Shown in pieces: positions 5,911 through 62,796 of a DNA stretch of 64,000 nucleotides (position 1 is the stretch's first letter; each line of letters begins with the position of its first letter). The position numbers and the translations under genes were made by a program. Under the pieces are notes generated by a model. That model was not told where the DNA came from. It saw only the letters and a program-made list of their open reading frames with translations, and searched no databases. Location: positions 108,810-172,809 of IMG/VR virus record IMGVR_UViG_3300042868_008486; one strand, 5' to 3'. Origin of the DNA: a virus (taxonomy: Duplodnaviria; Heunggongvirae; Uroviricota; Caudoviricetes).

Positions 5911-5929
5911 AAATTATTTATTTTTTGGT

Positions 5930-6085
5930 TTATTGTAATACTTCAATTGAATAGGTTGTTTTCTCATCCCCAATTTCAAGGGTGTGAATTGTAAGTCCAA
6001 AGGATTCTAACACTTCACTAATTTTGTTAACCGTAGAAGCTTTATCACTCCCGTGAACTAGCTCAAATGTTTTTACTTCTTTCAT
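5930..6085 (-). CDS. small hypothetical protein (51 codons, MKEVKTFELVHGSDK...)
   Basis: Fills the gap between the NAMPT-like and Prs-like genes. Below the 60-aa track cutoff. Confidence 0.25.
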   Translation of the reverse strand: MKEVKTFELVHGSDKASTVNKISEVLESFGLTIHTLEIGDEKTTYSIEVLQ

Positions 6086-6103
6086 AATACAATATTAATT
6101 AAA

Positions 6104-7003
6104 TTATTTGAATACATCAAATCTTGTTACAAAATTTTCTACTTCTTCATTACTAATTGAGTTAGTTGTGAATATGTGTTCGAATGAATTTTTCAAATCA
6201 TCAAACCCTCTTGAGAAAATCCCGTGACTAACAATTAAGTAAATTTTGCCTGTGAAGTTTTCATTTTCTTTTATCGCTTTCGCAATATTAAGGAATGTCC
6301 CTCCACCATCACAGATATCATCAACAATGAATAAATCTTTATCCAACACATCATCAGTTAATGGGACAAGTGTTTTAGATAGTTTACCATCAATGTCTCG
6401 GTATTTTGAACATACCAAAACATCCTGATTAGATTTGAATGAGTCGTTAACTGAATACACTTTCTTCAACGCTCCGGCATCAGGTGAAACATAAACAACC
6501 TTAGACATATCACTAATGATTTGACCTGTCATCATCCAATATTTTTGTAACGAACTCCTAACCAAGTCAATGTTACCTGATTTACTGAAGTTTTGAAGAC
6601 AAGCCTCCAACACATCTGAATGGGGGTCAACAACAGTTACCTTGTCAAACCCTTGTAGGTTAATGATTGGGGCAATTACATCTTTAATATAATTCACACT
6701 ACCAATCGAAAACTTACGGTCACTCCTTGCCCCTAAGAAATAGGGAACATAGAGTTCAATTTTTTTAACACCCAAGTTTTTCAATGCTTGATTAGCACAA
6801 ACAATTAACTCAACATCTTTGAAGGAATTCATTCGACTTCTAATCTCAACCCCATCTTTGAAAAACTTCGACACATCATAAAAATCAGTTGGGTCCTGTA
6901 CTATAATATCAATGGATTGTTGTCCGTCAGGGAACTGACTAACTTTATACCTTAATCTACCTGACAATTTGTCAGTGTCTTGTCTTAAATCTAATACTAG
7001 CAT
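6104..7003 (-). CDS. prs: ribose-phosphate pyrophosphokinase family protein (Prs or Adps-like)
   Basis: PRPP-binding loop LFIVDDICDGGGT and VSPDAGALKKV motif. 299 aa. Confidence 0.8.
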   Translation of the reverse strand: MLVLDLRQDTDKLSGRLRYKVSQFPDGQQSIDIIVQDPTDFYDVSKFFKDGVEIRSRMNSFKDVELIVCANQALKNLGVKKIELYVPYFLGARSDRKFSIGSVNYIKDVIAPIINLQGFDKVTVVDPHSDVLEACLQNFSKSGNIDLVRSSLQKYWMMTGQIISDMSKVVYVSPDAGALKKVYSVNDSFKSNQDVLVCSKYRDIDGKLSKTLVPLTDDVLDKDLFIVDDICDGGGTFLNIAKAIKENENFTGKIYLIVSHGIFSRGFDDLKNSFEHIFTTNSISNEEVENFVTRFDVFK

Positions 7004-8994: not shown

Positions 8995-9038
8995 TTGAGA
9001 TTATAAAACAATACGATATTTATATTTATATTTGATTT

Positions 9039-9527
9039 ATGAGCACAACTTCCGAGACTAAAGCTGAAAGAGACCCATTAACACCAAACCAAGTTAAAGG
9101 GATTAATATGGTTATTAAAGGTATTGGTAAAAAATACCCTTACGTTGTTGGGTGGGAAAAAAGTGAGGTATTCGATAAATACCAATCTCAAATGTTTATT
9201 AACTTAATAGTTGATATGACTAAATTTGCAAAATATTATAATTCACCAATTAAATCTTATTGGGTTGATGACTTAATTGAAGGTAGATATGATAGTATTG
9301 GTGGGGCTTTTTATCTTGTAAATTACGATGAAATACGTGATGATGCTTATGAAACAAAAAGAAAACTAGAAAATCGTATTAAAGACATTTATGTATTACT
9401 ACCTAAAGAATTTCAAGTTTTTGTTAAATGGTCAGGTGGTAGTTTTTTGTTACGTGACGATGAAGAATATTATAAATCCGTATCAAGTCTTGATATCCAC
9501 AGTTGTTTTGTTAAAATATTTAACTAA
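9039..9527 (+). CDS. hypothetical protein
   Basis: 162-aa plus-strand ORF diverging from the minus-strand train. AT-rich divergent intergenic region 8995-9038. Confidence 0.5.
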   Translation: MSTTSETKAERDPLTPNQVKGINMVIKGIGKKYPYVVGWEKSEVFDKYQSQMFINLIVDMTKFAKYYNSPIKSYWVDDLIEGRYDSIGGAFYLVNYDEIRDDAYETKRKLENRIKDIYVLLPKEFQVFVKWSGGSFLLRDDEEYYKSVSSLDIHSCFVKIFN

Positions 9528-9543
9528 CTTATTGTTTTAATTA

Positions 9544-9567
9544 GTTGCGGGATAGGATTCGAACCTA
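9544..9567 (-). ncRNA. tRNA-like 3' fragment (T-arm only, no partner acceptor strand found)
   Basis: ATAGG-ATTCGAA-CCTAC T-arm. No complementary 5' acceptor strand within 60-400 nt. Confidence 0.2.
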
Positions 9568-10002
9568 CATCATCGGATACTAACCTCCAATATGTTACCA
9601 CTTACACTACTCCGCTATACTACTGAATCCAATTCAGGTGGACTGAGAAATTGTATCTAAATCGTTTTCTTTTCTCACCTTACCACAGACCTCATATTGT
9701 CGACCATATGATTAATCCTGACTTTAAATAACATAGATAATGGTTCGGCCTTTTATGTCAGTCGCTCGACGTGTTATTACCCCAATATCCCAATTCCGTT
9801 CCCCCTAACTATATTGGGTTCCTTGCACCATACCCTCTAATATTGGAGTATGAGGCTGAACCCTCAAGGATTGGTAGCATCTATTGTTATGTTACTGTCT
9901 GCATTCAGTTCAGTAGTTAATTGTGATGAATCATTTACTCGGTCGCAGCCATACCATTCTTTCAGGTAGGTCCCCCTCGCTCTTATCATCATTGAGCCAC
10001 GT

Positions 10003-10078
10003 AGATAGGACAGGATTCGAACCTGTAACTCAACATCACCAGGACGGTTTCAGTTACCAATTACTATCACCTATCTAT
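10003..10078 (-). tRNA. tRNA-like gene, 76 nt, anticodon not assignable
   Basis: T-arm ACAGG-ATTCGAA-CCTGT. Perfect 7-bp acceptor (agatagg at 10003-10009 against cctatct at 10072-10078). D-loop contains TGG. Anticodon arm does not fold canonically by eye. Confidence 0.4.
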
Positions 10079-10193
10079 ATGTTGAGTTTCTTCATAACGG
10101 TACTCAACAAACCCTGCTTGCCAGTATTACATTTACTAACTACTATTATTCACATTCAATGTAACCCAAAGGTGGTCCGCCGTCATTGGTAGT

Positions 10194-10312
10194 AATCAGG
10201 GTGGGACTTGAACCCACAAGGTAACATTCGGCTTCAAGGCTCTCCTATATACCGTTCATAGGATGCAGTTACCACTTTACTCGTCTTATGCGTCTACCAA
10301 TTCCGCCACCTG
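10194..10312 (-). ncRNA. long tRNA-like RNA, family member a (119 nt)
   Basis: T-arm GTGGG-ACTTGAA-CCCAC. Acceptor AGTCAGG/CCTGATT with one G-U pair. 5' end AGTCAGGTGGCGGAATTGGTAGACGC matches the tRNA-Leu D-arm. Middle is about 35 nt too long for a type-II tRNA. Confidence 0.4.
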
Positions 10313-10444
10313 ACTATTTTTTATAATAACCCTTTATATAAAACGTAATATATAAAAAAACATACTCCAATTGTAATACATATAATAGTTGTTACTTGTG
10401 CTGCAGGATGTAAAGTTTCCATTTTATTTTATTTTAAAGTTAGT

Positions 10445-10519
10445 AGATAGGATTGGATTCGAACCAATGACGCATAATACAAATCAATGTACCCGCTCTG
10501 ACCTCTGAGCTACCCATCT
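10445..10519 (-). tRNA. tRNA-like gene, 75 nt
   Basis: Canonical UAGCUCAGAGGUCAGAGC D-arm. T-arm ATTGG-ATTCGAA-CCAAT. 7-bp acceptor with one G-U pair. Anticodon stem GUACA/UGUAU with a 6-nt loop, which is atypical. Confidence 0.45.
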
Positions 10520-10531
10520 ATATTTTTTTGT

Positions 10532-10640
10532 AGTCAAGACAGGAATCGAACCTGTGTATCATCAAAGTACTTTGATGGTATGTTTATACTTCATACCCTG
10601 CTTTTACCATAAAGGTGTGTGTCTACCATTCCACCACCTG
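10532..10640 (-). ncRNA. long tRNA-like RNA, family member b (109 nt)
   Basis: T-arm ACAGG-AATCGAA-CCTGT. Acceptor AGTCAGG/CTTGACT. Family 5' end AGTCAGGTGGTGGAATGGTAGAC. Confidence 0.4.
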
Positions 10641-10776
10641 ACTATATTTTTTGTTACTCAACCCCTCACGTCCTTTTACTCTTGGGGTTAAAGGTCTTGC
10701 GGACCACCATTACGGATTTATCATACTAGGAAGACGCTCAGTATATAAATCTTGCACCTCTCTGAAGTAACTTGTG

Positions 10777-10846
10777 GCTCAAGTGGGAATCGAACCCACA
10801 CCTTGATTTTTAGAGAATCCTATTCTAACCTTTTAACTATTGAACC
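10777..10846 (-). tRNA. tRNA-like gene, 70 nt
   Basis: T-arm GTGGG-AATCGAA-CCCAC. Acceptor GGTTCAA/TTGAGCC with one G-U pair. Possible anticodon loop UAGGAUU. Confidence 0.35.
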
Positions 10847-10961
10847 AAATTGTGACTGATGGTCGTCTAACACCTCGACTTTCGACTGATACAATTTTAC
10901 GTGTGCCCCACTCGGTCTATTTGTCACTGTCAGTTTTCAATCACAATTCAAATATAAGAAA

Positions 10962-11384
10962 TTATTTCTTTTCAGTCCAAACAATTTTATATTTTTCCCA
11001 ATTATTTTTTATTTCTTCTTGTAATGATTCGGTTAAACCTTTGTTTTCCAACACTTTACCATAGACAAAACTAATCACTCTATTAACACTCTTAAAGTGT
11101 TTAATACTTGTCCATTTCTTACCATAACCATCATAGAAGATACCTGTATAACTTTTAGTTATTAATTGAATGTAATTGTTATCAACTTCATACTTGAACA
11201 GTTCTTTTAATTTAACATCCAAATTATTTCCATCATCATCAATCTTAATGATTAAGATATATTCTTTATCTTCCAATGTTACAGGAATCGCATTCATTAT
11301 TGTTTTATCCTTCTTAAATAAGTGTAATTTTGTTTTATGAAGGTAATTCAATGTGTCTTGTTTAATTTGTTCTATTGTTTTCAT
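10962..11384 (-). CDS. hypothetical protein
   Basis: 140-aa ORF embedded in the tRNA-like array. Confidence 0.5.
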   Translation of the reverse strand: MKTIEQIKQDTLNYLHKTKLHLFKKDKTIMNAIPVTLEDKEYILIIKIDDDGNNLDVKLKELFKYEVDNNYIQLITKSYTGIFYDGYGKKWTSIKHFKSVNRVISFVYGKVLENKGLTESLQEEIKNNWEKYKIVWTEKK

Positions 11385-11385
11385 T

Positions 11386-11568
11386 TTAATTTATTTTAGC
11401 AATTATTTTATTATCCCCATCCGTTTCAATGGTTAACATACCCTTGAGTTTAATACTTCCCTTAGTATGGGGGTTATCGGGAGTTTCCTTAGTTGAAAAT
11501 CCAACACCTGTACTTACATCTACGTGATGAACATAATAAGTGTCTCCTCTACATTTGATTACCCACAT
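11386..11568 (-). CDS. hypothetical protein
   Basis: 60-aa ORF. Confidence 0.4.
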   Translation of the reverse strand: MWVIKCRGDTYYVHHVDVSTGVGFSTKETPDNPHTKGSIKLKGMLTIETDGDNKIIAKIN

Positions 11569-11655
11569 TGGAATTGTTGGGTCTTCAAGATGTTTCTTGT
11601 TAAAATGAAATACAATTTCACATTTTTTGTTAATCTACATCATAACTGTTTGTTT

Positions 11656-11970
11656 TTATTGTTTATTATAATTTTTTAATGCTAATGGTAACGACGCGGT
11701 TAATCGGTTTGTAATCTCATTGGATTCAAACGCAATTGATGTTAATTGATTATTTATGTCAGGTTCATAAAATGATGAAACACTAACATTCAAATCAGTT
11801 AATCGTTCTAATAAAATTTTAAGTTTGTTTTCGGTATCAATGGATAATGAAATAAGAAAATTGTTGTTCCATTGACGGGCTTTCTCAGGATGGTCTAACA
11901 TATACTGAGCAATCGAGTGTCCCGATTGAGCCATTTGATAACCCGGAGTTAAATCTCCTCTTGTTACCAC
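11656..11970 (-). CDS. peptidyl-tRNA hydrolase PTH2-like protein
   Basis: 104 aa. N-terminal VTRGDLTPGYQMAQSGHSIAQYM resembles the PTH2 R-x-DL...G...AQ..HA motif. Confidence 0.45.
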   Translation of the reverse strand: MVTRGDLTPGYQMAQSGHSIAQYMLDHPEKARQWNNNFLISLSIDTENKLKILLERLTDLNVSVSSFYEPDINNQLTSIAFESNEITNRLTASLPLALKNYNKQ

Positions 11971-12031
11971 ATAAAGTTTTTGTATCTAATTGTTTTTCAT
12001 AATAATATAAATATAATCAATAATTTTTTGT

Positions 12032-12229
12032 TGTCAAGAGAGGACTCGAACCTCTATGAATTATAATTGATGTTAGTTGGCACTCTCAGAGAGGATATCG
12101 CTTATTATTTTCATCAACCTTATTGGAATGTATTACGTAACGGCTATTTACCCAACTTGTGTACCGTAATCTTCTGCCCATTCCATTCTAACCGCAGCCG
12201 TTTAGCGTCACCCTTTCCGCCACTTGACT
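12032..12229 (-). ncRNA. long tRNA-like RNA, family member c (about 198 nt)
   Basis: T-arm AGAGG-ACTCGAA-CCTCT at 12039-12055. Family 5' end AGTCAAGTGGCGGAAAGGGTGACGC at 12205-12229. Acceptor 6 of 7. No other T-arm in between. Confidence 0.3.
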
Positions 12230-12384
12230 AAAAATGACTTTACCTTACAAAGTCTAAGTAGGTTTAGTTGAGGACTTTCAAATCTTAATCGTCTATATGA
12301 CTCCTTCCTCTCAGTGTATCGTTTATTTACTCGTCGGGCATAGTATCTGAGTTTTCTGTGTGCTGCCATCACACTTACAATCGT

Positions 12385-12500
12385 AGCCAGAACAAGATTC
12401 GAACTTGTAAGACACAGTAATACAGTACTGCGTCATCCCTGTATGGATATGTGCGTCTACCAACGAGCGAGGACACCCCACTCCATTCCGCCACCTGACT
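12385..12500 (-). ncRNA. long tRNA-like RNA, family member d (116 nt)
   Basis: T-arm ACAAG-ATTCGAA-CTTGT. Acceptor AGTCAGG/TCTGGCT with two G-U pairs. D-region carries an insertion (GGAATGGAGTGGGGTGTCCTCGCTCGTTGGTAGACGC). Confidence 0.35.
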
Positions 12501-12671
12501 AAAAATGTGTGTTTTTAAATTATCCCTAGAACACACAAACTATGCCGACATACGATTCGGAGAGCGTCCACGCCAACATATGTGTAAACCCGAAGGTCTT
12601 TTTATTTCAACCCATATCTGTAATCTCTATCTTCGTTCCTTAGCGGTGCACCACTAGAGGGCTAATTCAGT

Positions 12672-12785
12672 AGTCAGGACAGGACTCGAACCTGTTCGAT
12701 TTCACCGTAGGACGTAACGAGACTGCTACTTTCAGAGTGTTACTATATCCCCTCACCTCTGCGTCTACCCATCCGCCACCTGACT
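12672..12785 (-). ncRNA. long tRNA-like RNA, family member e (114 nt)
   Basis: T-arm ACAGG-ACTCGAA-CCTGT. Perfect 7-bp acceptor AGTCAGG/CCTGACT. 5' end AGTCAGGTGGCGGATGGGTAGACGC. Discriminator A, no encoded CCA. Confidence 0.45.
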
Positions 12786-12867
12786 CGGACTCGAACCGTT
12801 GAAAACACACACCTTTCAGTGCCAACAAAACCCTGACCCCAAAGTTTTATTGTCAGTCGCCAGGGTA

Positions 12868-12977
12868 GGACTCGAACCTACACCCTATGACTTGTACCTC
12901 ACCATAGGGACTTACGTTGTTTTTAAAAGAGTGGTATCACCCCACTGTAGCGTCTAACCAATTCCGCCACCTGACTT
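12868..12977 (-). ncRNA. long tRNA-like RNA, family member f (110 nt)
   Basis: T-arm GTAGG-ACTCGAA-CCTAC. Acceptor 6 of 7. 5' end AGTCAGGTGGCGGAATTGGTTAGACGC. Confidence 0.4.
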
Positions 12978-13062
12978 GTTACTTAGGCGAATATACTCAA
13001 ATGCGGTACACTTAGATTTCCAATTCAATACGCCACTTGTATAAAGAGCCTTATAACCAAAT

Positions 13063-13152
13063 TTGAGGTTGAGAACCTCTGTGTTGTAGTGCTTAAATCT
13101 GTCCACTCATATTCTTGTTTCCTTCTCAAGGGAACAACACAAATAATCAGTC
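13063..13152. repeat. direct repeat copy 1 (GAGGTTGAGAACCTCTGTGTTGTAG ... TTCTCAAGGGAACAACAC)
   Basis: Imperfectly repeated at 13236-13340. Each copy holds the hairpins GAGGTT-GAG-AACCTC and TTCC-TTCTCAAG-GGAA. Confidence 0.6.
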
Positions 13153-13235
13153 GCTCGCTTTAGAGTCAGTCGCCCATTGTATAGCAACGCATATACAAAG
13201 GACAACACAGGAATCTTTGTACCTGTACTGATTAT

Positions 13236-13340
13236 TGTTTGAGGTTGAGAACCTCTGTGTTGTAGGGTACTATTCTCCCTTAACCCTCTTTAGCATCATA
13301 CATTCCTTTCTCAAGGGAACAACACAATAATAAATCCCTG
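13236..13340. repeat. direct repeat copy 2
   Basis: Shares the 25-mer gaggttgagaacctctgtgttgtag and ctttctcaagggaacaacaca with copy 1. Confidence 0.6.
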
Positions 13341-13638
13341 TACTCTCAGTAAGTAATGTTATAGATAGGCCCAAACCCCTATCCTCCGTAGCTCAACTAT
13401 TTATTTCAACCACTCAAATTACCTTATGAGATTTATGTCTATTTCAAGTATATTGTTATAACATCTAACCCCTAAACAACTACACTCTGAATGTGTATAT
13501 CTCCCATACTTCGCTCCCATCCCTATTCTACGATAGGTGAGTCCCATAGCAAAATCTGTTTAGTCATTAGCAGGGGAATAATATTTAAAATGGTGACTAC
13601 TCCCTCAGAGCTACCAACCCGCACCAATGAATTGATAC

Positions 13639-13662
13639 GAGCTAGGGAGGACTCGAACCTCC
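13639..13662 (-). ncRNA. tRNA-like 3' fragment (T-arm GGAGG-ACTCGAA-CCTCC), partner strand not found
   Basis: Canonical T-arm, no complementary 5' acceptor. The 7-mer just before the T-stem (gagctag) recurs directly upstream as gagctac. Confidence 0.2.
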
Positions 13663-13675
13663 AAGTCACCATTTT

Positions 13676-13699
13676 AATCGACATAGGACTTGAACCTAT
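13676..13699 (-). ncRNA. tRNA-like 3' fragment (T-arm ATAGG-ACTTGAA-CCTAT), partner strand not found
   Basis: The 7-mer before the T-stem (aatcgac) is repeated directly at 13733-13739 rather than inverted. Confidence 0.2.
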
Positions 13700-13755
13700 A
13701 CGGGAGCACCTATAACCCTCCAATCGACTATTTAATATTTCAAAGAACTTTTAGA

Positions 13756-13831
13756 ATCTGAGGTGGGAATCGAACCCACACTAAGTCAACCTTTACAGGA
13801 TTTGGAACCACTCCTCATTACGCTCTCAGAT
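13756..13831 (-). tRNA. tRNA-like gene, 76 nt
   Basis: T-arm GTGGG-AATCGAA-CCCAC. Perfect 7-bp acceptor (atctgag / ctcagat). Internal arms not canonical by eye. Confidence 0.4.
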
Positions 13832-13854
13832 TTCCTTTCAACAAATATAGTAAT

Positions 13855-14271
13855 TTATTTTTGTTCTGACCTAATAATTTCAATTAATTTATCAATACAT
13901 TCAGATTCAGCTTCAGGATATGTTCTATATAATAAAGAATATTGTCCAATCGTATTTTCCCACCCCCATTCTTCTGAAGCTAAATCATTTGGATTACCAA
14001 AAAAACGTGTGTAGGTATAACAGAATTTAGGTTCTGTCGTACAATCAGTTAATATCTCAGGGAATATCTTATGTGTATCTCTAAACCATTGGAAAACCTG
14101 TGATTTAAGTGGTGCGATTGTATATGTTTCATCACCAACACCATTCATATAAAATGTATGTTTACCGTCTTTTTTATATAATGAACATTCACTCCCAAAC
14201 CAACTATACTTAATATACCCCAATTCTTTAAGTAATAAGGCTTGGTCATATGTGACAAATAAATCTACCAT
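13855..14271 (-). CDS. hypothetical protein
   Basis: 138-aa ORF. Confidence 0.5.
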   Translation of the reverse strand: MVDLFVTYDQALLLKELGYIKYSWFGSECSLYKKDGKHTFYMNGVGDETYTIAPLKSQVFQWFRDTHKIFPEILTDCTTEPKFCYTYTRFFGNPNDLASEEWGWENTIGQYSLLYRTYPEAESECIDKLIEIIRSEQK

Positions 14272-14309
14272 AGTTTTACTTTTTTAAAATATTTTTTATC
14301 TTAACTCAG

Positions 14310-14633
14310 ATGGGTTATGTGTATTTAATTGTTGAGTGGGGTTCAACACCTGAGCGATACAAATTGGGTATCACAAAGAACGACCCTAAACTACGATTAA
14401 AAACCCATCAAACTTCAAACCCCCACGAACTAGTCTTAATACGGACATATAAGTCGGAACATTACCACAAGATTGAATCTTGGATGAAACGTGAATATTT
14501 CATATATGGTCAAGAGGGTGGAACCGAATGGTTTGAATTACCCTCTGAGATTGCATCTAATTTCACCCAAGAATGTAAACGTATTGAGGACGTGTTTAAC
14601 GACCTAATAAAAAGTGGTAACCCTTTTATTTAG
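14310..14633 (+). CDS. T5orf172/GIY-YIG-like domain protein
   Basis: YVYLIVEWG...YKLGITKND...RLKTHQ...EWFELP pattern typical of the T5orf172 (MUG113) family. Confidence 0.5.
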   Translation: MGYVYLIVEWGSTPERYKLGITKNDPKLRLKTHQTSNPHELVLIRTYKSEHYHKIESWMKREYFIYGQEGGTEWFELPSEIASNFTQECKRIEDVFNDLIKSGNPFI

Positions 14634-33483: not shown

Positions 33484-33783
33484 TTAACATTCAACTATTT
33501 CCGCAAAATAAAATGAACCCCCGTTATCAATGTACAATTCTTTCCTGAATGTCACCTCATCCCCATCTTTATATTTGGAGTTATCGGTGAATGGGTCCAA
33601 TATTAATTCTTGGTAAAAAGTTCTTACAACTTTTTCACCACCACAATTTGCGTGTATGTTTTTTGGGGTATGTTCAACATAGAACCCCTTCTCGTCATTA
33701 AATCTAATAGTTCCTTTTAACATATCAGTAATTTGTTTTATGTTTATCCTTACGTGTGTATTTTTTTCTATTGCGATAAACAT
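33484..33783 (-). CDS. hypothetical protein
   Basis: 99-aa ORF. Confidence 0.45.
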   Translation of the reverse strand: MFIAIEKNTHVRINIKQITDMLKGTIRFNDEKGFYVEHTPKNIHANCGGEKVVRTFYQELILDPFTDNSKYKDGDEVTFRKELYIDNGGSFYFAEIVEC

Positions 33784-33868
33784 TAGGTCTTGTCGCCATC
33801 AAAATCTCCGTTTGCGTAATCTCAATTGTTTTCATAATTCTTATTTTTATCAAAGTTATTAATTAAAT

Positions 33869-34303
33869 TCAAATACCACGCATCATTTCACGATTAATAT
33901 CTCTCTCTTTGATTGAATTTCGTTTATCGTATAAGTTTTTACCTTTAGCCAAAACAATTTCCATTTTGATTAACCCACGTTCATTTCGAAAAAGACGATA
34001 TGGGACAATCGTTAAACCATTAATTAATTCTTTTTCTAATTTCCTTAACTCCTTTTTCTTCATTAAGAGTTTACGTTCCCGGTTAGACTCGTGACTATAT
34101 GCAACATTATTACTCGTAACATTCATTCCTTTAACAAATAACTCACCTTTATTAAAATAACAATAGGTATCCACCATTGAAACTAAGTTGTTGGTAATTG
34201 CTTTAACTTCAGACCCTTGGAGTTTTAACCCAACGATAAATGTCTCAACAAAGTGATATTCAAACTTAACCTTTCGGTTTACTATGTTAACGGAATTTTT
34301 CAT
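33869..34303 (-). CDS. smpB: SsrA-binding protein SmpB
   Basis: NRKVKFEYHFVETFIVGLKLQGSEVKAI ... ERKLLMKKKELRKLE...IVLAKGKNLYDKR align block-for-block with bacterial SmpB. Likely start is the internal ATG at 34303. The track ORF extends to 34366 through a hairpin. Confidence 0.75.
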   Translation of the reverse strand: MKNSVNIVNRKVKFEYHFVETFIVGLKLQGSEVKAITNNLVSMVDTYCYFNKGELFVKGMNVTSNNVAYSHESNRERKLLMKKKELRKLEKELINGLTIVPYRLFRNERGLIKMEIVLAKGKNLYDKRNSIKERDINREMMRGI

Positions 34304-34325
34304 ATGAACAAATATAATAAAAAAA

Positions 34326-34358
34326 CCCCAATAAAGATTTACTCTATTGGGATTTTTT
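34326..34358. terminator. hairpin plus T-run, terminator or attenuator
   Basis: CCCAATA-11 nt-TATTGGG, then TTTTTTT on plus and an A-run before it. Upstream of SmpB on minus. Confidence 0.4.
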
Positions 34359-34444
34359 TCAACCATAGTAAGAAAGGGGTTAATGGTATTTTGTGTAAAA
34401 TATAAATATTACTAAATTTTAAAAAGTTTTAGATATTTATCATT

Positions 34445-34786
34445 ATGGTAATTAAAATCAACGATAATAAGTTTAAAGTCAAAGTAATGATGACACCAGG
34501 TCAGACTCAAAAAGGTATGATGGGTAAAAAATTTGACAAAACTTTCAATGGAATGTTATTCTTAATGAATGAAGGTATTCATTGTTTTTGGATGAAGGAT
34601 TGTATTATCCCATTGGATATTATCTTCATCAAAGATGGTAAGATTTTCAACATCCACCACAATTGTAACCCTTGTAAATCAGATGATTGTGGAAACTATT
34701 GTGGTGAAGGTGATATGATATTAGAGGTTAAAGGTGGAACGTGCAAACGTTTAGATATTAAACTTGACGATACCATTATATTTTAA
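34445..34786 (+). CDS. DUF192 (COG1430)-like protein
   Basis: GMLFLM...FWMKDCIIPLDIIFI..DGKI pattern. Confidence 0.5.
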   Translation: MVIKINDNKFKVKVMMTPGQTQKGMMGKKFDKTFNGMLFLMNEGIHCFWMKDCIIPLDIIFIKDGKIFNIHHNCNPCKSDDCGNYCGEGDMILEVKGGTCKRLDIKLDDTIIF

Positions 34787-36189
34787 CCTTCGTTTATTTT
34801 ACTTTGTAGAACTCTTACGAATTCATTTTGAATCATTTTAGTGAACTTAACTGCCGGTGAATCTTCTTCACTTCGTTGGTAACCTCCACCACCTCCCGAT
34901 GATTTTTGACTAGGTTTTCCTAAATAATTAAGTCCTGATATATTAGTGATACATTTATGTCCCCCACTATTCGCCTGAATCAAATCCCAAGCAGTGATAG
35001 ATATCTTTTCCATAATCGCCTTTTGTTTTTCACTCAACGATTTATATGGTTTTGACATTATGTCCCCAACGATAGTCAATAGTTCTTTACCATTACCCAT
35101 TGACTTAAATTTATCACCATATAGTGCAACAAAGTCTTTGAATGTAAACCCAACTGACTCCTCACCAACTGATGATTCTGAAACCCATTTAATTGTTGAT
35201 AAAGGTATTTGTCTATCTTTTAATTGCGATTCCCATTTAGCTAAAACCTCATCTTTAATCTCCCCTAAGTTCACACCTTTCAATGCTCTATCTTTTTTGT
35301 ATGGATTACAAGACGCTTGTACCAATCCTAATGGCCAAGCAATAACTATGAAGTCAGCTTCAGGATTATTTTTGAATGGGGTATATCTATCGTAAGACCC
35401 CGGTTTCATCATATTACCACCACCATATTGAACAATAACATTATCCAATACTTTTACGTTTGGATGATTTTTCATCGACTCAATATAGTTCTCTTGGTTT
35501 TTCTTTAATTGTTCAACAGGAGCAAAACCTTTTTCAACCATAATACGTTTGATATTATGTAAGATATTCAATAATGAAGGTGTTGATTTCATAACCAACT
35601 CTTCTAAGAAACCTGGTTTGTTTTTGAACGCCAATAGTAATTTGTTACACACAAATCCCATCGCCATTTTATTTTTTTGTAATGACTTATCTTTATCTAT
35701 TTTAAATAAATAATTGATAACCTCATCAACACTAATATCTTGTGGTGCAAAGTTTGCTGAGTCAACTGTTGAAATCAATAAAAGGTCATCACTTGGGAAT
35801 AACTCTTTAGTTGATATTGTTTGTGATACAGTTTCCACATTTGAACGTGACGCTTTAAAGTTAGTCGATGTTTTATCATCAACACCCGCTTGAGTATCGT
35901 GGTGGTCAGTATGTATAACAAACATTGGTTTTCCGTGAGCAAAATCCACTAACACCGGCATAACGTCACCACTACCTTCAGGTTTCTTTATAGACCATTC
36001 TTTATCACCATATTGGATTACTTCACAATCAACAGTTTTGATTCCGTATTGTGCCAAGTATTCTTTCATAGCAATTGCGGTTGTAACACCATCTAAATCT
36101 TGGTGAAAATATATTTTAGCCTTTTGATATCTATCCGCAATCGCGTTAATATCTCTAAGACCTGATTCTAATATTACTCTTTTTTTCAT
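34783..36189 (-). CDS. DHH-family phosphoesterase
   Basis: HQDLDGVTTAIAM (motifs I-II) and VIHTDHHDT (DHH motif). 468 aa. Confidence 0.55.
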   Translation of the reverse strand: MKKRVILESGLRDINAIADRYQKAKIYFHQDLDGVTTAIAMKEYLAQYGIKTVDCEVIQYGDKEWSIKKPEGSGDVMPVLVDFAHGKPMFVIHTDHHDTQAGVDDKTSTNFKASRSNVETVSQTISTKELFPSDDLLLISTVDSANFAPQDISVDEVINYLFKIDKDKSLQKNKMAMGFVCNKLLLAFKNKPGFLEELVMKSTPSLLNILHNIKRIMVEKGFAPVEQLKKNQENYIESMKNHPNVKVLDNVIVQYGGGNMMKPGSYDRYTPFKNNPEADFIVIAWPLGLVQASCNPYKKDRALKGVNLGEIKDEVLAKWESQLKDRQIPLSTIKWVSESSVGEESVGFTFKDFVALYGDKFKSMGNGKELLTIVGDIMSKPYKSLSEKQKAIMEKISITAWDLIQANSGGHKCITNISGLNYLGKPSQKSSGGGGGYQRSEEDSPAVKFTKMIQNEFVRVLQSKINEG

Positions 36190-37314: not shown

Positions 37315-38169
37315 TTCTTCAAATTCCATTACAGATTGTTTCTTTTGGTCAACAAACCCTTGAACTCGATTTCTTGCTATCTCAGCATAATTTGGGGATA
37401 ATTCTATCCCTACCCATCTTCTATCCAAGGTTTCTGCGGCAACTAAACTTGTTCCTGAACCTGCGAAGGGGTCTAATATAACATCGTTTTTATATGATAA
37501 TATTTTAATGGCTTTCGTTGGGATGTCCATTGAGAATGTCGCTTTAGTTAATGACCTTGTGTCCGCAAAATATTTCCACTGACCAAAAACCAATTCCATA
37601 AATTCTTTCTTATCCGTCTCTTCATAGACAACTTTTTTCTTAACGGAACCATCTTCTTGTTCTATCTCAGTTGGAACACCTTTCCATTGTGGTTCACCTT
37701 TAACTATTTTAATATGTTTGTGTTTGTAAGCTAATATTACACATTCCTTTGGATTGTAAATATAAGGACTTGAAGGAGACATCCAACTACCCCAAGCAGT
37801 CGTTTTACTTCGATGAGGTGAATCTTCTTCCAAGTCAACAATACCAAAGAACTTATATCCAATTCTTTTCATAACCTGATAAATCTCAGAACAAAAGAAA
37901 ATTCTACCCCCTTTATCTTGTCTATTTATTTCGTATGGTATGTTGATGGCGATTCTACCATCATCCTTTAATATTTGATAGGCTTGTGTTAACCATTCAG
38001 TTGTAAACTTTAAGTATTCTTCAATGTACATATCATCATCGTGTACGTCATAAGCAATTCCAACTCCATATGGGGGTGATGTAACAATTAGGTCAATTGA
38101 ATTGATTGGCATATCCGCCATTACATCAATACAACTACCATTTATAATTTTTCCAATATAATTTTCCAT
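37303..38169 (-). CDS. DNA methyltransferase, N4/N6 beta-class
   Basis: Motif IV LIVTSPPYGV precedes motif I ILDPFAGSGTS. Confidence 0.75.
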   Translation of the reverse strand: MENYIGKIINGSCIDVMADMPINSIDLIVTSPPYGVGIAYDVHDDDMYIEEYLKFTTEWLTQAYQILKDDGRIAINIPYEINRQDKGGRIFFCSEIYQVMKRIGYKFFGIVDLEEDSPHRSKTTAWGSWMSPSSPYIYNPKECVILAYKHKHIKIVKGEPQWKGVPTEIEQEDGSVKKKVVYEETDKKEFMELVFGQWKYFADTRSLTKATFSMDIPTKAIKILSYKNDVILDPFAGSGTSLVAAETLDRRWVGIELSPNYAEIARNRVQGFVDQKKQSVMEFEEGTK

Positions 38170-38203
38170 ACTTAATAATAGATTTTTTGAGTTGAAATGT
38201 CAA

Positions 38204-39163
38204 CTACCAACAAGTAATAATGACTAATCCGTGACCACCGTCACCACCCGCACCACCGGCTGCGTTTTGTGCGGAACCACCTCCACCACCACCACAACCG
38301 TGACCACCATCACCTCCAAATCCACCAACTCTACCCGCAGTACTTGATGACCCACCACCAGCACCACCTGTGTAAAATAATGGCGTATCAGTATTACCAC
38401 CTGAACCATCAACTTGGTCTCCCATTCCGTGACCACCATCAATAACAGTTGCTGAATTTGCGGTTCCACCACTAAGTGTTGGTATAATACCTGTACCTGT
38501 AATGTTACCACCATTCGCAGTTGCACCACCCGCAGAGTTCCCACCACCACTAGCACCCGCAGAAACAGGTGATATTAATGTAATTGAGTTACCCGTACCA
38601 CCACCACTTGAACCACCAACAACTCCGATTTGGCCAGCAACAGGATTTATTTGACCTAACTGAGGAAATATAAATGAAGTTGAGTAAGTCCATATTGTTC
38701 CCGCAGCCCCTGCAGTACCATTAACTGATGTTGTTCCACCACCACCACCTGTTGGGGCGACATTACCATTTTTCATTAATACCGCAGTAGTTCCCGTTGA
38801 GGGGATTACAGAAACATAAGAATGTTCTCCACTACCACCTATTCCACCATTACCATTAACGATACCACCTGTTCCACCGACACCACCTCTACCTACTTGA
38901 ACGAACAATGTGTCAGGTAATAATGACGCAGGAAAAAGTCCTGCCGCGAATGCTGAAGAACCACCTCCACCACCTCCTGTTCCTGAGTTGTTAGTATTTC
39001 CACGACCTCCACCACCGCCAGCACCACCACCTATACATAAAATATAAACGAAAGATGCGTTATTTGGTTTTGACCAAGTTTGCCAAGCAGTTGCTCCTGA
39101 TGAATTAACCCTAAAAACTTGATTACTATTTTCTTTACCGGGTAAGTTAAATATATCTATCAT
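38204..39163 (-). CDS. glycine-rich repeat protein, paralogue 1 (putative fibre/adhesin)
   Basis: Conserved N-terminus MIDIFN...NQVF...WQTW.KP and conserved C-terminus GG.GGDG.VIIT.W. The middle is a G-rich low-complexity region. Confidence 0.6.
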   Translation of the reverse strand: MIDIFNLPGKENSNQVFRVNSSGATAWQTWSKPNNASFVYILCIGGGAGGGGGRGNTNNSGTGGGGGGSSAFAAGLFPASLLPDTLFVQVGRGGVGGTGGIVNGNGGIGGSGEHSYVSVIPSTGTTAVLMKNGNVAPTGGGGGTTSVNGTAGAAGTIWTYSTSFIFPQLGQINPVAGQIGVVGGSSGGGTGNSITLISPVSAGASGGGNSAGGATANGGNITGTGIIPTLSGGTANSATVIDGGHGMGDQVDGSGGNTDTPLFYTGGAGGGSSSTAGRVGGFGGDGGHGCGGGGGGSAQNAAGGAGGDGGHGLVIITCW

Positions 39164-39169
39164 TATTAT

Positions 39170-40114
39170 TTACCAATATGTTATTATGACTAATCCGTCA
39201 CCACCTCTACCACCATTACCACCTTGGTTAGTTATTCCGGCTCCACCGCCACCTCCACCACTACCATAGGCTCCGTGACCTCCTTGTCCACCAGGTCCAC
39301 CATCTGATGAACCACCACCCGCACCTCCTAAGAAAACTAAAGGTTCTGTGGAGTATCCATTAGTGTTCGGGTTAAATGACATATAACCACCACTACCACT
39401 ACCACCCGGTGTTGTGTTAGTAGCTGAACCACCCGCAGGTCCACCTGTCATTGTGGGGATATTACCACCCGCATTTACATTACCTCCCGCTTGAGCAGTC
39501 CCACCATTCATTCCCGCACCCGCAGCACCCGGTGTTGTTATACCACTAATAGTGATTGAATTTGGTATTGGGGTTGTTTGACCTAAAACACCTGGCAAAC
39601 CATCAAATGCGGGTACTAAACTAAATTCTGAGAATATACCTGTAGTTTCACTCCAAAGAGTTCCCGCAGTTCCCGCAGTTCCACCATTTAATCCTGAAGC
39701 ACCACCACCCGCAGCCGCAGTTCCACTTTGATATAAAACATTTGATGCGGTTTTTCCTGTATCAGAAGCTACCAAAACATATGATAATGTTCCTGCCCCA
39801 CCGTTACTGTTAGTTGTCCCACCAATTCCCGCAGAACCACCACCACCAACTTGGATGTGTAGGATTTCAGGTAAGTAACTAGCGGGTACTAAGGCGTTCA
39901 TTCCTGCGGATGAACCACCACTACCACCACCACGTCTAGCGGTCGCAGTTCCAGCACCTTGACCACCACCACCTCCACCTCCACCACCAATTAAGAAGAA
40001 ATGAACGAATTGACAATTTTGAGGTTTAATCCAACTATAGAATGAATTTATTCCATTGGCATAAAAAACTTGTCTGTTTTGACTACCGTCAACTATATTA
40101 AAAATATCTATCAT
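39170..40114 (-). CDS. glycine-rich repeat protein, paralogue 2
   Basis: Same architecture as paralogue 1. Confidence 0.6.
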   Translation of the reverse strand: MIDIFNIVDGSQNRQVFYANGINSFYSWIKPQNCQFVHFFLIGGGGGGGGGQGAGTATARRGGGSGGSSAGMNALVPASYLPEILHIQVGGGGSAGIGGTTNSNGGAGTLSYVLVASDTGKTASNVLYQSGTAAAGGGASGLNGGTAGTAGTLWSETTGIFSEFSLVPAFDGLPGVLGQTTPIPNSITISGITTPGAAGAGMNGGTAQAGGNVNAGGNIPTMTGGPAGGSATNTTPGGSGSGGYMSFNPNTNGYSTEPLVFLGGAGGGSSDGGPGGQGGHGAYGSGGGGGGAGITNQGGNGGRGGDGLVIITYW

Positions 40115-40117
40115 AAT

Positions 40118-41041
40118 TTAAGTAACTGTTACAATAACGAATCCGTCACCACCACGACCACCGATTCCTGCGGTTGAGTTACCTCCGGCTCCTCCACCAC
40201 CTCCACCACAACCGAATGAACCATCACCACCTTTACCTCCAACACCTAATGTTTGTGAAGCCGCACCACCACCAGCACCACCACTAAAGAACATTGGTGT
40301 TTTAAAGTTTGGTCCGATGAAGTTTTCTCTTGTCGCATAACCATTATTACCCGGATTGGCGGTTGCACTCTGAACTGCGGTGTTAGTACCACCTGAAATC
40401 GTTGGGAAATCTAAAATACCCACAATACTTGCAGATGCCCCTAAAGTTCCAACCGAACTACAACCCGCACCACCCGCACCACCTGTGAACGGAATACCTG
40501 ATGGTGTTACGTTAGTTGCGGGAGTACTTGATGACCCACCTATACCACCGGCTTGACCTGCATACGCCGAAACCAAACCAACTTGACCTAATATGATATC
40601 CGCTTGGACAATTATTGTTCCAGCATTTTGAGTTAATGTTGTTCCCGCACCCAATGTTCCACTTTTCATTAATATATTATAACGTGTTGAAATATCAGGA
40701 ATTGAACAAACATAACTTAAACCTCCAACACCACCAGCACCATTACCTGACGCTCCACCAATACCACCACCACCAACTTGAATATATAACATATCGGGTA
40801 AAGTAAAAGCGGGAACGGTTATGTAAGCATACGCGGCAGAACCACCTCCGTTACCGCCACTTCGTGTTGATGCCGCACCTGTCGCCCCACCACGTCCACC
40901 CGCACCACCTCCTACTAAGAAGAAGTTAACGAATTTACAATTAGGTGGTTTAATCCAAGTTTGCCAAGCATCAGTTCCTGCAAAATAAAAAACTTGGTTT
41001 TTTAAACTATTATCATTTATATGATTATAATCTATACCCAT
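40118..41041 (-). CDS. glycine-rich repeat protein, paralogue 3
   Basis: Same architecture, ends GGRGGDGFVIVTVT. Confidence 0.6.
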   Translation of the reverse strand: MGIDYNHINDNSLKNQVFYFAGTDAWQTWIKPPNCKFVNFFLVGGGAGGRGGATGAASTRSGGNGGGSAAYAYITVPAFTLPDMLYIQVGGGGIGGASGNGAGGVGGLSYVCSIPDISTRYNILMKSGTLGAGTTLTQNAGTIIVQADIILGQVGLVSAYAGQAGGIGGSSSTPATNVTPSGIPFTGGAGGAGCSSVGTLGASASIVGILDFPTISGGTNTAVQSATANPGNNGYATRENFIGPNFKTPMFFSGGAGGGAASQTLGVGGKGGDGSFGCGGGGGGAGGNSTAGIGGRGGDGFVIVTVT

Positions 41042-41043
41042 AA

Positions 41044-41241
41044 TTAATTAGCCCAAACGGGTCTTTCAGGTGTGGAGTTTATTACTCTATAACCATAACT
41101 CCCTTCAAGAGTTAAAGTATTACCGTCTAAGTCAGTAAATCTAATAACTGAACCATTACTAATTTCTTGGTACAATTGACCTTCATACCCATATTCAAAT
41201 TCACATAAAATATATTCCATAACCTTAATATTTACCACCAA
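41044..41241 (-). CDS. hypothetical protein
   Basis: 65-aa ORF. Confidence 0.4.
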   Translation of the reverse strand: MVVNIKVMEYILCEFEYGYEGQLYQEISNGSVIRFTDLDGNTLTLEGSYGYRVINSTPERPVWAN

Positions 41242-41650
41242 TTACTGTCACATCATATCCCGCAGCAACCGCAGTTCCTACTGTAACAAAAAGTTTATAA
41301 CCCGGAGGTAATGCAAAATTTAATGGTAATTCATATGTAGGTAAAGCCGCAGTTTCTGAAAGTGTTACTGCAGGTAATGATATTTCATCCCACAATGTAT
41401 TATTTTCTGTTGTTCCTGTAACATCCCCATTATTAATGAATACTCTTGCAACTGTCGCCACATTAGTCCCTAACGCTCTGAACCTCATCCTTTGAACATA
41501 ACCACCATTTGTCGTTGATGCGTGAAATGCCATATAAGCGGTTCCTGATGTTAAATCTTTAGTTGTGTTAGCCGTCAATACAGAACCTACCCATTGTGTG
41601 TCAGCGGATGCCGTATAAATTGGTTGTGTATTTAATGATGTATTTGCCAT
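41225..41650 (-). CDS. hypothetical protein (possible structural)
   Basis: 141 aa, Thr/Ala/Val-rich. Confidence 0.45.
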   Translation of the reverse strand: MANTSLNTQPIYTASADTQWVGSVLTANTTKDLTSGTAYMAFHASTTNGGYVQRMRFRALGTNVATVARVFINNGDVTGTTENNTLWDEISLPAVTLSETAALPTYELPLNFALPPGYKLFVTVGTAVAAGYDVTVIGGKY

Positions 41651-41674
41651 TTTATATTATTTTTTTATTTATTT

Positions 41675-42508
41675 TTATGTTAAAAAGTTTCCTGTCATAA
41701 TTGCATTAGCCAATCCGTAATTAAATAAACTTGGTGATTGTGACGGTGTGTTAACCCATACGGGTGACCCATTATATGTTGAACGGACTAAAACATCCCC
41801 CTCCGTAGGATTAGTAATTCTAACGTCGTGTAGTTCGTCTAATTCCCAACCATTTGAAATATTAATAAATATGGAACCCACTGTTGCAGATTGTCTAATA
41901 ACATAACCAATTAATACTGTGTGATAGGGTGCTTGTGGTTTTGTTGATGTATAACCACCAGCAACTGTTGGTGATAACCATAATGCAGTTCCACCACTAA
42001 AACCATTAGTATTTAAATTACTTATAATACCAAATGTTGTTACATAACCTTCCCCGGCTGATGTAATGTCTGAGGTAACCATACCTAATGTAGTTACTGA
42101 ATAACCATCACCTGTCGCTATCGCTCTTTTAACTGAGGGTCTATTACCTTGAGAACCAAAAACATAAACTATTTCACCCTTAACTAAAGTAGTAGCCTCC
42201 TCATTATAAACTCTAACAAGTTCTTCTTGACCTACTTGTAAGTCAATTAATGTCCCACCTGGAACACCAACACCAACATTCAATGTACCTGTGCCAGCAT
42301 CCCAAGTTAAACTACCTATTTGGGATGTTGTAGTTGCGGTAACATCAAACTCAATCTGATTGACATTCGTTAATATATCGTCTCGTGTAATTTGTTTCGA
42401 ACTACCGGTGGGGTCATCCGTTGTATCACTAACGTCAACAACATAGAATAAATCTTCACCCGTCACTGCGGATAATACCGGTAATTGAGGTACTTTTTGA
42501 TTAGCCAT
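41675..42508 (-). CDS. putative tail fibre/structural protein
   Basis: 277 aa, Thr/Gly/Val-rich beta-type composition. Sits next to the glycine-rich paralogues. Confidence 0.35.
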   Translation of the reverse strand: MANQKVPQLPVLSAVTGEDLFYVVDVSDTTDDPTGSSKQITRDDILTNVNQIEFDVTATTTSQIGSLTWDAGTGTLNVGVGVPGGTLIDLQVGQEELVRVYNEEATTLVKGEIVYVFGSQGNRPSVKRAIATGDGYSVTTLGMVTSDITSAGEGYVTTFGIISNLNTNGFSGGTALWLSPTVAGGYTSTKPQAPYHTVLIGYVIRQSATVGSIFINISNGWELDELHDVRITNPTEGDVLVRSTYNGSPVWVNTPSQSPSLFNYGLANAIMTGNFLT

Positions 42509-61951: not shown

Positions 61952-61994
61952 AAAAAACCTTCTATCATAATAAATAGAAGGTTTCTTTTTTTTT
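61952..61994. terminator. bidirectional terminator after sigma factor gene
   Basis: AACCTTCTA-10 nt-TAGAAGGTT with a flanking A-run and T-run. Confidence 0.6.
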
Positions 61995-62796
61995 ACATAT
62001 AGTCAAATAAGACCGAGCTTTCATTTCTGAGTTTCCTCAACGCTTTTTCTTTTATTTGTCTAACACGTTCTTTAGTTAGGTTAAAATCAGTACCAATATC
62101 TTCTAACGTTCGACACGTACCTGTCAATCCAAAATAATCTTCGATGATGACTTTTTCACGTTCATCTAAGATATCTAACAAACCAATTAACTTTGTTTTT
62201 AGAATATCTTGACCATTGAAAACCTCGTCAGGCATCTCAGCTCCCTCGTTTTTAATGATGTCGATTAATGTATCACCCTCATCGTTGATATTCATATCTA
62301 AATCAATTATTGATGGTAGATTTTGGAATTTATCACTTAAATTACCACCTGACGTTTCAATTTCTTTCTTCGCCTTATACAAGTCCTGAACAACATTAAC
62401 AGGTAGTCGGATAGTTCTTGCGTTATCATTTAGTGATTGTAATATAGATTGTCTAACCCACCACACCGCATATGATATAAATCTTAAATTCTTTGACCAA
62501 TCAAAGTTACGGATAGCCTTTAGTAACCCAAAGTTACCCTCATTAATCAAATCAGGTAATGGTAATCCTTGGTTTTGATATTGTTTAGCGACCGTGATAA
62601 CAAAACGTAAGTTACCTTCAACAAGTTCTTGTTCGATGTTACGAATTTGTTTATCAGACAAACCACCTTTCGATATCATTTCAGAGAGTTCTTTTTCTCT
62701 ATCAGGTGTCATTACTTTAATCTTACGGATATCTTTCAAGTAAACTTGAATCTCGTCTTGGTTGATTGGAATTGCCGAATTTTTGTCCTTCATCAT
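61993..62796 (-). CDS. sigma-70 family RNA polymerase sigma factor
   Basis: Region 2 (ISYAVWWVRQSILQSL), region 3 (RTIRLPVNVV), and region 4.2 HTH (TLEDIGTDFNLTKERVRQIKEKALRKLR). Confidence 0.75.
   Translation of the reverse strand: MMKDKNSAIPINQDEIQVYLKDIRKIKVMTPDREKELSEMISKGGLSDKQIRNIEQELVEGNLRFVITVAKQYQNQGLPLPDLINEGNFGLLKAIRNFDWSKNLRFISYAVWWVRQSILQSLNDNARTIRLPVNVVQDLYKAKKEIETSGGNLSDKFQNLPSIIDLDMNINDEGDTLIDIIKNEGAEMPDEVFNGQDILKTKLIGLLDILDEREKVIIEDYFGLTGTCRTLEDIGTDFNLTKERVRQIKEKALRKLRNESSVLFDYM

Follow-up and report, generated by a model that had tools for sequence, protein, structure and literature searches.

We find that a 64,000-nucleotide stretch of DNA (hereafter the window, meaning the whole of the stretch analysed) carries a genuine gene for SmpB, the protein half of trans-translation. 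Judged from sequence comparisons, this is probably (we would put it at about 0.75) a functional, canonical smpB on a Bacteroidota jumbo phage of at least 217 kb, the product of which would act in ordinary trans-translation. Huge phages have been described as carrying both tmRNAs and SmpB in their complement of translation genes (Al-Shayeb et al. 2020; PMC7162821), and a phage-borne SmpB is thus a kind of gene already reported. What the present gene adds is a large, strongly conserved clade of phage SmpB proteins, which shows that jumbo phages have repeatedly captured genes for ribosome rescue. The gene deserves attention chiefly for the size of this clade, and for the slight possibility that its members are truly devoid of tmRNA, in which case they would allow one to ask cleanly why a virus brings only the protein half of trans-translation.

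The open reading frame encodes SmpB

The gene and the elements immediately upstream of it are as follows.

33869-34366, minus strand: open reading frame as called mechanically, 165 aa; SmpB
33869..34303, minus strand: predicted true extent of the smpB coding sequence, 144 aa plus stop, from the Pfam and NCBIfam matches, homologue sizes, a conserved ATG, the AlphaFold2 model and dN/dS
34304..34366, minus strand: spurious 21-codon N-terminal extension, beginning with ATG, not TTG, and lying outside the SmpB profile
34319..34359, minus strand: terminator-like hairpin (A-run, 18-pair stem, T-run), potentially bidirectional, with a putative terminator function
34309..34316, minus strand: TATATTTG box (TAnnTTTG), separated by 5 nt from the ATG at 34303; candidate Bacteroidota-type -7 promoter element

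A preliminary description of this DNA had aligned the open reading frame block-for-block with bacterial SmpB, and profile searches and solved structures bear this assignment out. The Pfam profile PF01668 matches with an E value of 2.9e-41 (141.2 bits against a cut-off of 27) over profile positions 2-139 of 143, covering residues 28-163 of the 165-aa version, and the scores of both NCBIfam equivalog models exceed their cut-offs (TIGR00086, 142.9 bits versus 119.1; NF003843, 138.7 versus 130). Fifteen distinct solved SmpB sequences align with the phage protein over its full length, the best being that of Thermotoga maritima (7LJP). An AlphaFold2 model built with 31 homologues (mean pLDDT 76) has a strand-rich core and a predicted C-terminal helix at residues 127-142. 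When this model was compared with the PDB using Foldseek, the top 20 matches were all SmpB (probability 1.00, TM 0.6-0.8), ribosome-bound complexes among them, and no non-SmpB structure was returned with E < 0.1. A PHROG search placed the protein in phrog_6791. Because the Pfam and NCBIfam cut-offs are passed, the alignments are full length and the modelled fold matches SmpB only, the identification is secure.

The predicted start lies at an internal ATG

Comparison with relatives places the translation start at the ATG at 34303, giving a protein of 144 aa, which is the internal start, 21 codons downstream of the mechanical one, that the preliminary description had favoured. Among 2,616 relatives found in a database search, the best 120 (61-100% identity) are nearly all 144-145 aa long. 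The homologous ATG is the start in 16/16 IMG/VR relatives; in-frame stops lie 2-38 codons upstream of it, and none of the 16 has an in-frame ATG upstream of the conserved start. The annotated smpB start should therefore move to 34303. The mechanical start, which had been described as a TTG, is in fact an ATG (codon at 34366).

The 21-codon extension reads through the hairpin at 34319-34359, in agreement with the earlier observation of a hairpin and T-run at 34326-34358 within it. The hairpin has a folding energy of -22 kcal/mol and a folding z-score of -4.3, and no other terminator-like site was found in 33700-34900. Its stem is conserved, with compensatory changes, in five relatives (L012-L015 and L026).

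Between the hairpin and the start codon, the TAnnTTTG motif is equally spaced from the ATG in 15/16 relatives, also where the remaining upstream sequence is unrelated. The motif matches the -7 consensus of Bacteroidota promoters. We considered it as a promoter signal for the whole window and dropped this idea, as it is not enriched upstream of the window's open reading frames (8/85); only its conservation upstream of smpB was used as evidence. Because of this lack of enrichment, we treat the TATATTTG box as a putative smpB promoter element.

Genome context and probable origin

The identical protein is encoded on 13 contigs from several metagenomes, the longest of 216,909 bp. Relatives occur on 26 IMG/VR viral contigs of up to 369 kb, and more than 100 distinct clade sequences with 60-94% identity to the window SmpB are spread across many metagenomes. 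The best SmpB matches among deposited phages, at 36-44% identity, come from the Lak megaphages of Prevotella and from the 630-735-kb genomes of Al-Shayeb et al.; when 20 kb of the window were compared with deposited phages by megablast, no near-identical genome was found.

The gene had been called phage-encoded, and context supports this although the window itself contributes no recognised virion hallmark gene (capsid, terminase or tail), which is why phage identity is argued from context. The same lack would fit a piece of a bacterial genome or plasmid in which smpB is the cell's own gene. We consider this reading highly improbable, the least probable of those we weighed. The window (32% G+C) is densely coding with nearly all genes on one strand, and most of its large open reading frames match neither Pfam nor PHROG. 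No rRNA or housekeeping genes were seen in the sequence examined, and the window and its flanks carry phage-typical genes (NAD salvage, Sir2, SbcC-like, sigma factor and amidase). The relatives lie on IMG/VR viral contigs, and identity between the clade and the cellular SmpBs found does not exceed 54%. Taken as context, these features make phage identity a well-supported reading.

Among cellular proteins, Bacteroidota supply the SmpBs most similar to that of the phage (51-54% identity in Cyclobacteriaceae and 47% in Roseivirga and Owenweeksia). This similarity points to Bacteroidota as the probable donor phylum of smpB and most likely as the phylum of the host.

The ribosome-entry features of the tail are kept

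We aligned the phage protein and its relatives with an E. coli SmpB reference that had been checked against PDB 6Q98. The C-terminal basic tail, the presence of which had been pointed out previously, aligns with those of the solved SmpBs, with the following correspondences.

E. coli G132-K133: phage G121-K122
E. coli H136: phage Y125
E. coli D137-K138-R139: phage D126-K127-R128
E. coli K143, R145, R153: phage K132, R134, R142

According to a review of SmpB function (PMC4151336), an aromatic residue of the tail stacks on 16S G530 and triggers EF-Tu, and replacement of His136 by Tyr is tolerated; peptidyl transfer and tagging require the DKR motif and the basic residues downstream of it; and the tail has to become a helix within the mRNA channel. 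In the phage protein the aromatic position is Tyr125, the modelled helix spans residues 127-142, and the tail is as long as that of the functional Thermus thermophilus SmpB. G121, K122, D126 and K127 are invariant among 31 members of the phage clade. As far as alignment and modelling can tell, all tail features required for productive ribosome entry are thus kept in the phage SmpB. Codon comparisons with eight phage relatives give dN/dS values of 0.05-0.11, with the tail constrained too, and indicate that the gene is maintained by strong purifying selection.

Together, selection and the kept ribosome-entry features argue against a pseudogene and against a tagging-defective decoy. A decoy would bind host tmRNA or ribosomes and block tagging, such that phage products escape degradation. 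The only features that might speak for such a role are substitutions at two positions: the residue equivalent to E. coli E31 is Ile23 in the phage protein, and Ile or Val across the clade, and the equivalent of E. coli W147 is Ile136. Against it stand the aromatic residue, the DKR motif and the basic tail residues, most of them invariant in the clade and with the roles given above (PMC4151336), and a tail no shorter than that of a working SmpB. We therefore give the decoy reading very little weight.

The alignment also covers E. coli L91, K124 and E31, which we take to be residues of the tmRNA-binding surface. The outcome for these contact residues is mixed: the equivalents of L91 and K124 (L80 and K113) are invariant, but that of E31 is not kept. 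Glu31 of E. coli has reportedly been linked to tmRNA binding, in work from 2006 attributed to Dulebohn and colleagues. The changes at the E31 position (Ile or Val) and the W147 position (Ile136), as they appear in the alignment, count against our preferred reading of a canonical, functional SmpB.

No tmRNA is detected in the window or its flanks

The preliminary description had reported no recognisable tmRNA in the window, and ARAGORN, Rfam and a custom scan for the G3:U70 acceptor pair agree. ARAGORN called no tmRNA in the 64 kb at its default or at a 90% threshold; it detected the ssrA gene adjoining smpB in three bacterial loci used as positive controls. Searches of the whole window with the standard and permuted Rfam families found none, either at gathering score or at E<=10; when 9000-14500 was scanned permissively, the sole result was a 17-nt T-loop fragment of RF00023 at 13763-13779 (15.5 bits against a gathering score of 47).

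G3:U70 is the alanine identity element of tmRNA. The window contains 13 good T-arm motifs, all on the minus strand between 9568 and 13779, and this acceptor pair is present in none of the 13 corresponding elements. A relaxed G3:U70 scan, which recovered the tmRNA of phage Lak-B5 as a control, picked up four weak AT-rich matches in the window, of which at least three fall within open reading frames.

No tmRNA was found in approximately 10 kb past each window end either, bringing the sequence searched to about 84 kb, or some 39% of the 216,909-bp contig, with the tRNA array included. Among the 26 IMG/VR viral contigs with relatives, none has a detectable tmRNA within 10 kb of SmpB. A scan of IMG/VR with a generic tmRNA 5' pattern produced no SmpB-clade contig among the 120 matches listed, and tblastx comparison of those loci with the clade linked only apparent adjacent smpB-ssrA pairs of bacterial type.

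Several candidates were rejected along the way. ARAGORN thresholds of 80%/70% gave 10/93 'tmRNA' calls, which were built from tRNA T-arms or coding sequence and which we treated as false positives. Weak calls at relaxed thresholds also appeared near the SmpB genes of four relatives. Rfam backed neither that of L008 at gathering score nor those of L028 and L030 at E<=1; the exception is a 77-nt element in L036 that comprises the tRNA-like domain only.

A hypervariable tRNA-like array lies downstream of smpB

The T-arm motifs of the window belong to a single array.

9544..13831, minus strand: array of tRNA and tRNA-like genes that shares its strand with smpB and lies about 20 kb downstream of it, with 13 T-arm motifs; searched for tmRNA, none found

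Only 5 of the 13 array genes reach the Rfam tRNA threshold. The array is hypervariable: in one relative (L010, 10563-10872) a 750-bp segment (12977-13725) and a 270-bp segment (12501-12771) are absent, with the flanking stretches 97-98% identical. Two T-arms at 13639-13699 had earlier been singled out as orphans without partner strands. The motifs do exist, at 13699 and 13662 on the minus strand, but so do partner strands, in non-canonical arrangements. Both motifs fall within the 750-bp segment.

One such arrangement is an element at 13583-13676 (minus strand) in which a long outer stem surrounds three hairpins, one T-arm-like, one long and rich in G-U, and one small. Read from 13676 to 13583, its parts come in the order T-arm, 3' acceptor, 5' acceptor plus D-arm, which resembles permuted ssrA genes. 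As a permuted two-piece tmRNA it was rejected, as it has no G3:U70, no match to a permuted family at E<=10 and no credible tag frame, and as its segment is lacking in a close relative that retains SmpB. It was also rejected as a conserved partner of SmpB because, besides lacking G3:U70 and any tmRNA-model score, it lies in the 750-bp segment that is missing from the closest relative.

These elements raise the question of whether SmpB has been repurposed to partner one of the phage's unusual tRNA-like RNAs, such as that at 13676-13583, rather than a canonical tmRNA. SmpB does share a strand with the aberrant array, and similarly odd units occur in other SmpB-bearing huge-phage contigs, including a 77-nt RNA with G3:U70 described below. 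However, the close relative that lacks the 750-bp candidate segment retains SmpB at 89% identity, no element in the window has G3:U70, and no tmRNA family scores at E<=10 in the window beyond the 17-nt RF00023 fragment. We regard a repurposed SmpB as very unlikely.

Several properties of the array and its counterparts are recorded here as observations in their own right. When introns are allowed, ARAGORN interprets array genes as interrupted by 23-121 nt within the anticodon loop or close to it, and two genes have 'anticodons' of 2 or 4 bases. Identical acceptor stems recur among several genes (AGTCAGG/CCTGACT and AGATGGG/CCTATCT), and an encoded CCA is absent from all of them. The junctions in L010 coincide with the 5' ends of tRNA-like genes, with AGTC microhomology. 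An amber-suppressor-type tRNA with anticodon CUA lies at 10774-10846 on the minus strand (57 bits). We looked for TAG recoding as a link to this tRNA(CUA) and saw no sign of it: 5/70 minus-strand stops are TAG, and the read-through extensions are short.

In the element at 13583-13676, the T-arm-like hairpin (GGTTCGAGTCC) occupies the position of the D-arm. Similar 'two T-arm' units are found on two SmpB-bearing huge-phage contigs (L028, 4860-4950; L036, 5296-5396), and we know of no described family of such units. L036 (IMGVR_UViG_3300042502_001233, 362 kb) also encodes, at 5626-5702, an RNA of 77 nt that has G3:U70 in its acceptor, A73 and an encoded CC. Its match to the Rfam tmRNA model (28.7 bits) is confined to the two ends of the model, corresponding to a tRNA-like domain without the tag region, and the RNA sits 4.3 kb upstream of the SmpB gene of that contig.

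A further non-coding element of about 90 nt, at 12231-12324 on the minus strand, is 84% identical to L028 4766-4859; the SmpBs of these two phages share only 51% identity. The element contains an invariant core of 26 nt (CAACTAAACCTACTTAGACTTTGTAA), is found immediately 5' of a tRNA-like gene in either phage and has no match in Rfam. Within the variable 750-bp segment are two copies, at 13062-13142 and 13238-13327, of a structured unit of about 85 nt comprising an 8-bp stem (TGTGTTGT/ACAACACA) and a hairpin (GAGGTTCTCAACCTC).

In Lak phages the tmRNA is distant from smpB

For comparison, we used the complete 543,529-bp genome of Lak-B5 (MK250024.1), assembled from 12 pieces. Its SmpB gene lies at 112,431-112,868 and its tmRNA at 409,798-410,207, about 297 kb apart. 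The Lak-B5 tmRNA is a full-length, one-piece molecule that matches model positions 1-374 in Rfam at 48.0 bits (E 3.5e-17; gathering score, 47), and it has the acceptor GGGGAUG/CAUCUCC with G3:U70 and the tag DDEIEFRMAA. ARAGORN misses it at default settings and detects it at a 90% threshold. Across Lak genomes, the tmRNA is present in 15/15 at 87.5-100% identity and SmpB in 15/15. The Lak-B5 tmRNA gene (L202, 29930-30339) has a tRNA cluster and a gene for tRNA(CUA) in its neighbourhood.

In Lak-A1, Lak-B5, LR756501 and LR745206, SmpB is located 3-16 kb from a same-strand tRNA array, with no tmRNA within 20 kb. The window is laid out in the same way: its smpB lies at 34 kb, and the array occupies 9.5-13.8 kb. 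It thus resembles the Lak and other huge-phage SmpB loci in a genome of more than 200 kb, a same-strand tRNA array close by and the lack of an adjacent tmRNA. It differs from them in that its SmpB is only 42-46% identical to theirs and belongs to a separate, populous clade, whereas for Lak the tmRNA is demonstrated in the genome.

With the bacterial SmpBs of E. coli, T. thermophilus and T. maritima (7LJP), the phage protein shares a full-length match above the equivalog cut-offs, the fold and the helix with its aromatic residue, DKR motif and basic residues. It is set apart from them by a jumbo-phage-like genome, an identity of at most 54% and the lack of a detected adjacent ssrA, which the three bacterial control loci do have. 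Phage G (PMC12484599) and an OM43 methylophage (PMC9004378) likewise carry one half of the trans-translation pair, but in their case it is a tmRNA without a reported SmpB, whereas in the window phage it is SmpB without a detected RNA.

Host tmRNA and a second phage gene are about equally probable partners

The preliminary description had regarded the window's SmpB as an orphan, which does not follow from a 64-kb window. The window is less than a third of the 216,909-bp contig, and in Lak the partner is distant from smpB (about 297 kb) and is missed by default ARAGORN. Absence from the window therefore does not make smpB an orphan. More generally, a partner RNA should not be taken as absent because a partial window lacks it or ARAGORN at default settings does not report it, given that the Lak tmRNA is detectable only by Rfam or at a relaxed ARAGORN threshold.

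Three explanations had been offered for the missing tmRNA: that it is encoded elsewhere in the genome, that the phage SmpB hijacks or antagonises host tmRNA, or that SmpB has been repurposed. A tmRNA elsewhere and use of host tmRNA both retain substantial probability. Antagonism and repurposing are disfavoured because all the tail residues for ribosome entry are kept and purifying selection is strong.

In the first of the two surviving explanations, the phage encodes its own tmRNA in the remaining 130-150 kb or so, and SmpB and tmRNA form a phage-borne rescue pair. The Lak genomes provide the precedent, with both genes in 15/15 and the Lak-B5 pair widely separated, and both genes are among those reported in huge phages (Al-Shayeb et al., PMC7162821). 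AT-rich phage tmRNAs are also easily missed, as default ARAGORN overlooks that of Lak. On the other side, nothing was found in about 84 kb that include the only tRNA array seen, which is the sort of site that holds the Lak tmRNA, nor within 10 kb of SmpB in the 26 relatives. We hold an own tmRNA to be a serious possibility, a little short of an even chance.

In the second, the genome has no tmRNA, and SmpB would work solely with that of the host, raising rescue capacity or stabilising the host tmRNA. This reading is favoured by the failure to find a tmRNA in any clade sequence examined, and by a SmpB that has an intact tail and is nearest to Bacteroidota SmpBs, for which reason it is plausibly compatible with the tmRNA of a Bacteroidota host. 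It is weakened by the fact that the sequence examined covers less than half of the genome and that Lak-B5, the sole complete SmpB-bearing phage genome checked, has a tmRNA. Because the negative result for about 39% of the genome, tRNA array included, is set against the positive precedent of Lak, we consider the odds of host tmRNA only and of an additional phage copy elsewhere in the genome to be roughly equal.

A broader proposal would be that an entire clade of Bacteroidota jumbo phages has SmpB but no tmRNA of its own, and either commandeers host tmRNA or uses one of the aberrant tRNA-like RNAs of its hypervariable array. We think this unlikely; if true, SmpB without an own tmRNA would represent a phage-specific variant of ribosome rescue.

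Proposed function

Our preferred reading, that of a canonical SmpB acting in ordinary trans-translation, suggests the following course of events. The gene, probably captured from Bacteroidota, would be transcribed from its own promoter-like box and insulated from upstream transcription by the terminator-like hairpin. Phage SmpB would bind the tRNA-like domain of alanyl-tmRNA, substituting for the anticodon arm, and, where ribosomes have stalled at the 3' end of a broken mRNA, enter their empty A site. There, Tyr125 would stack on 16S G530, and Asp126-Lys127-Arg128 together with the basic C-terminal helix would fill the vacant mRNA channel, such that translation shifts to the tag frame of tmRNA and the ribosome is freed. 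During infection, surplus SmpB may keep ribosomes available amid heavy cutting of mRNA. We infer both the benefit to the phage and the identity of the partner, which would be the host's tmRNA, plus a phage copy if one is encoded elsewhere in the genome.

Other genes of the window and its flanks

Genes related to NAD salvage (NAMPT and PRPP-synthetase-like) are located at 4405-7003 on the minus strand, and Sir2-family, nucleoside deoxyribosyltransferase-like and NUDIX genes lie just past the left end of the window. Towards the other end, a sigma-70-family gene with regions 2 and 4 occupies 61993-62796 (minus strand), and SbcC-like and metallophosphatase genes follow past the right end. Three tandem paralogous genes of 307-319 aa are found at 38204-41041 on the minus strand, at least two of them with the glycine-rich domain PF21722. 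They lie in the stretch of highest G+C, which reaches 45% in 38001-40000 and 39% in 40001-42000, compared with about 32% elsewhere.
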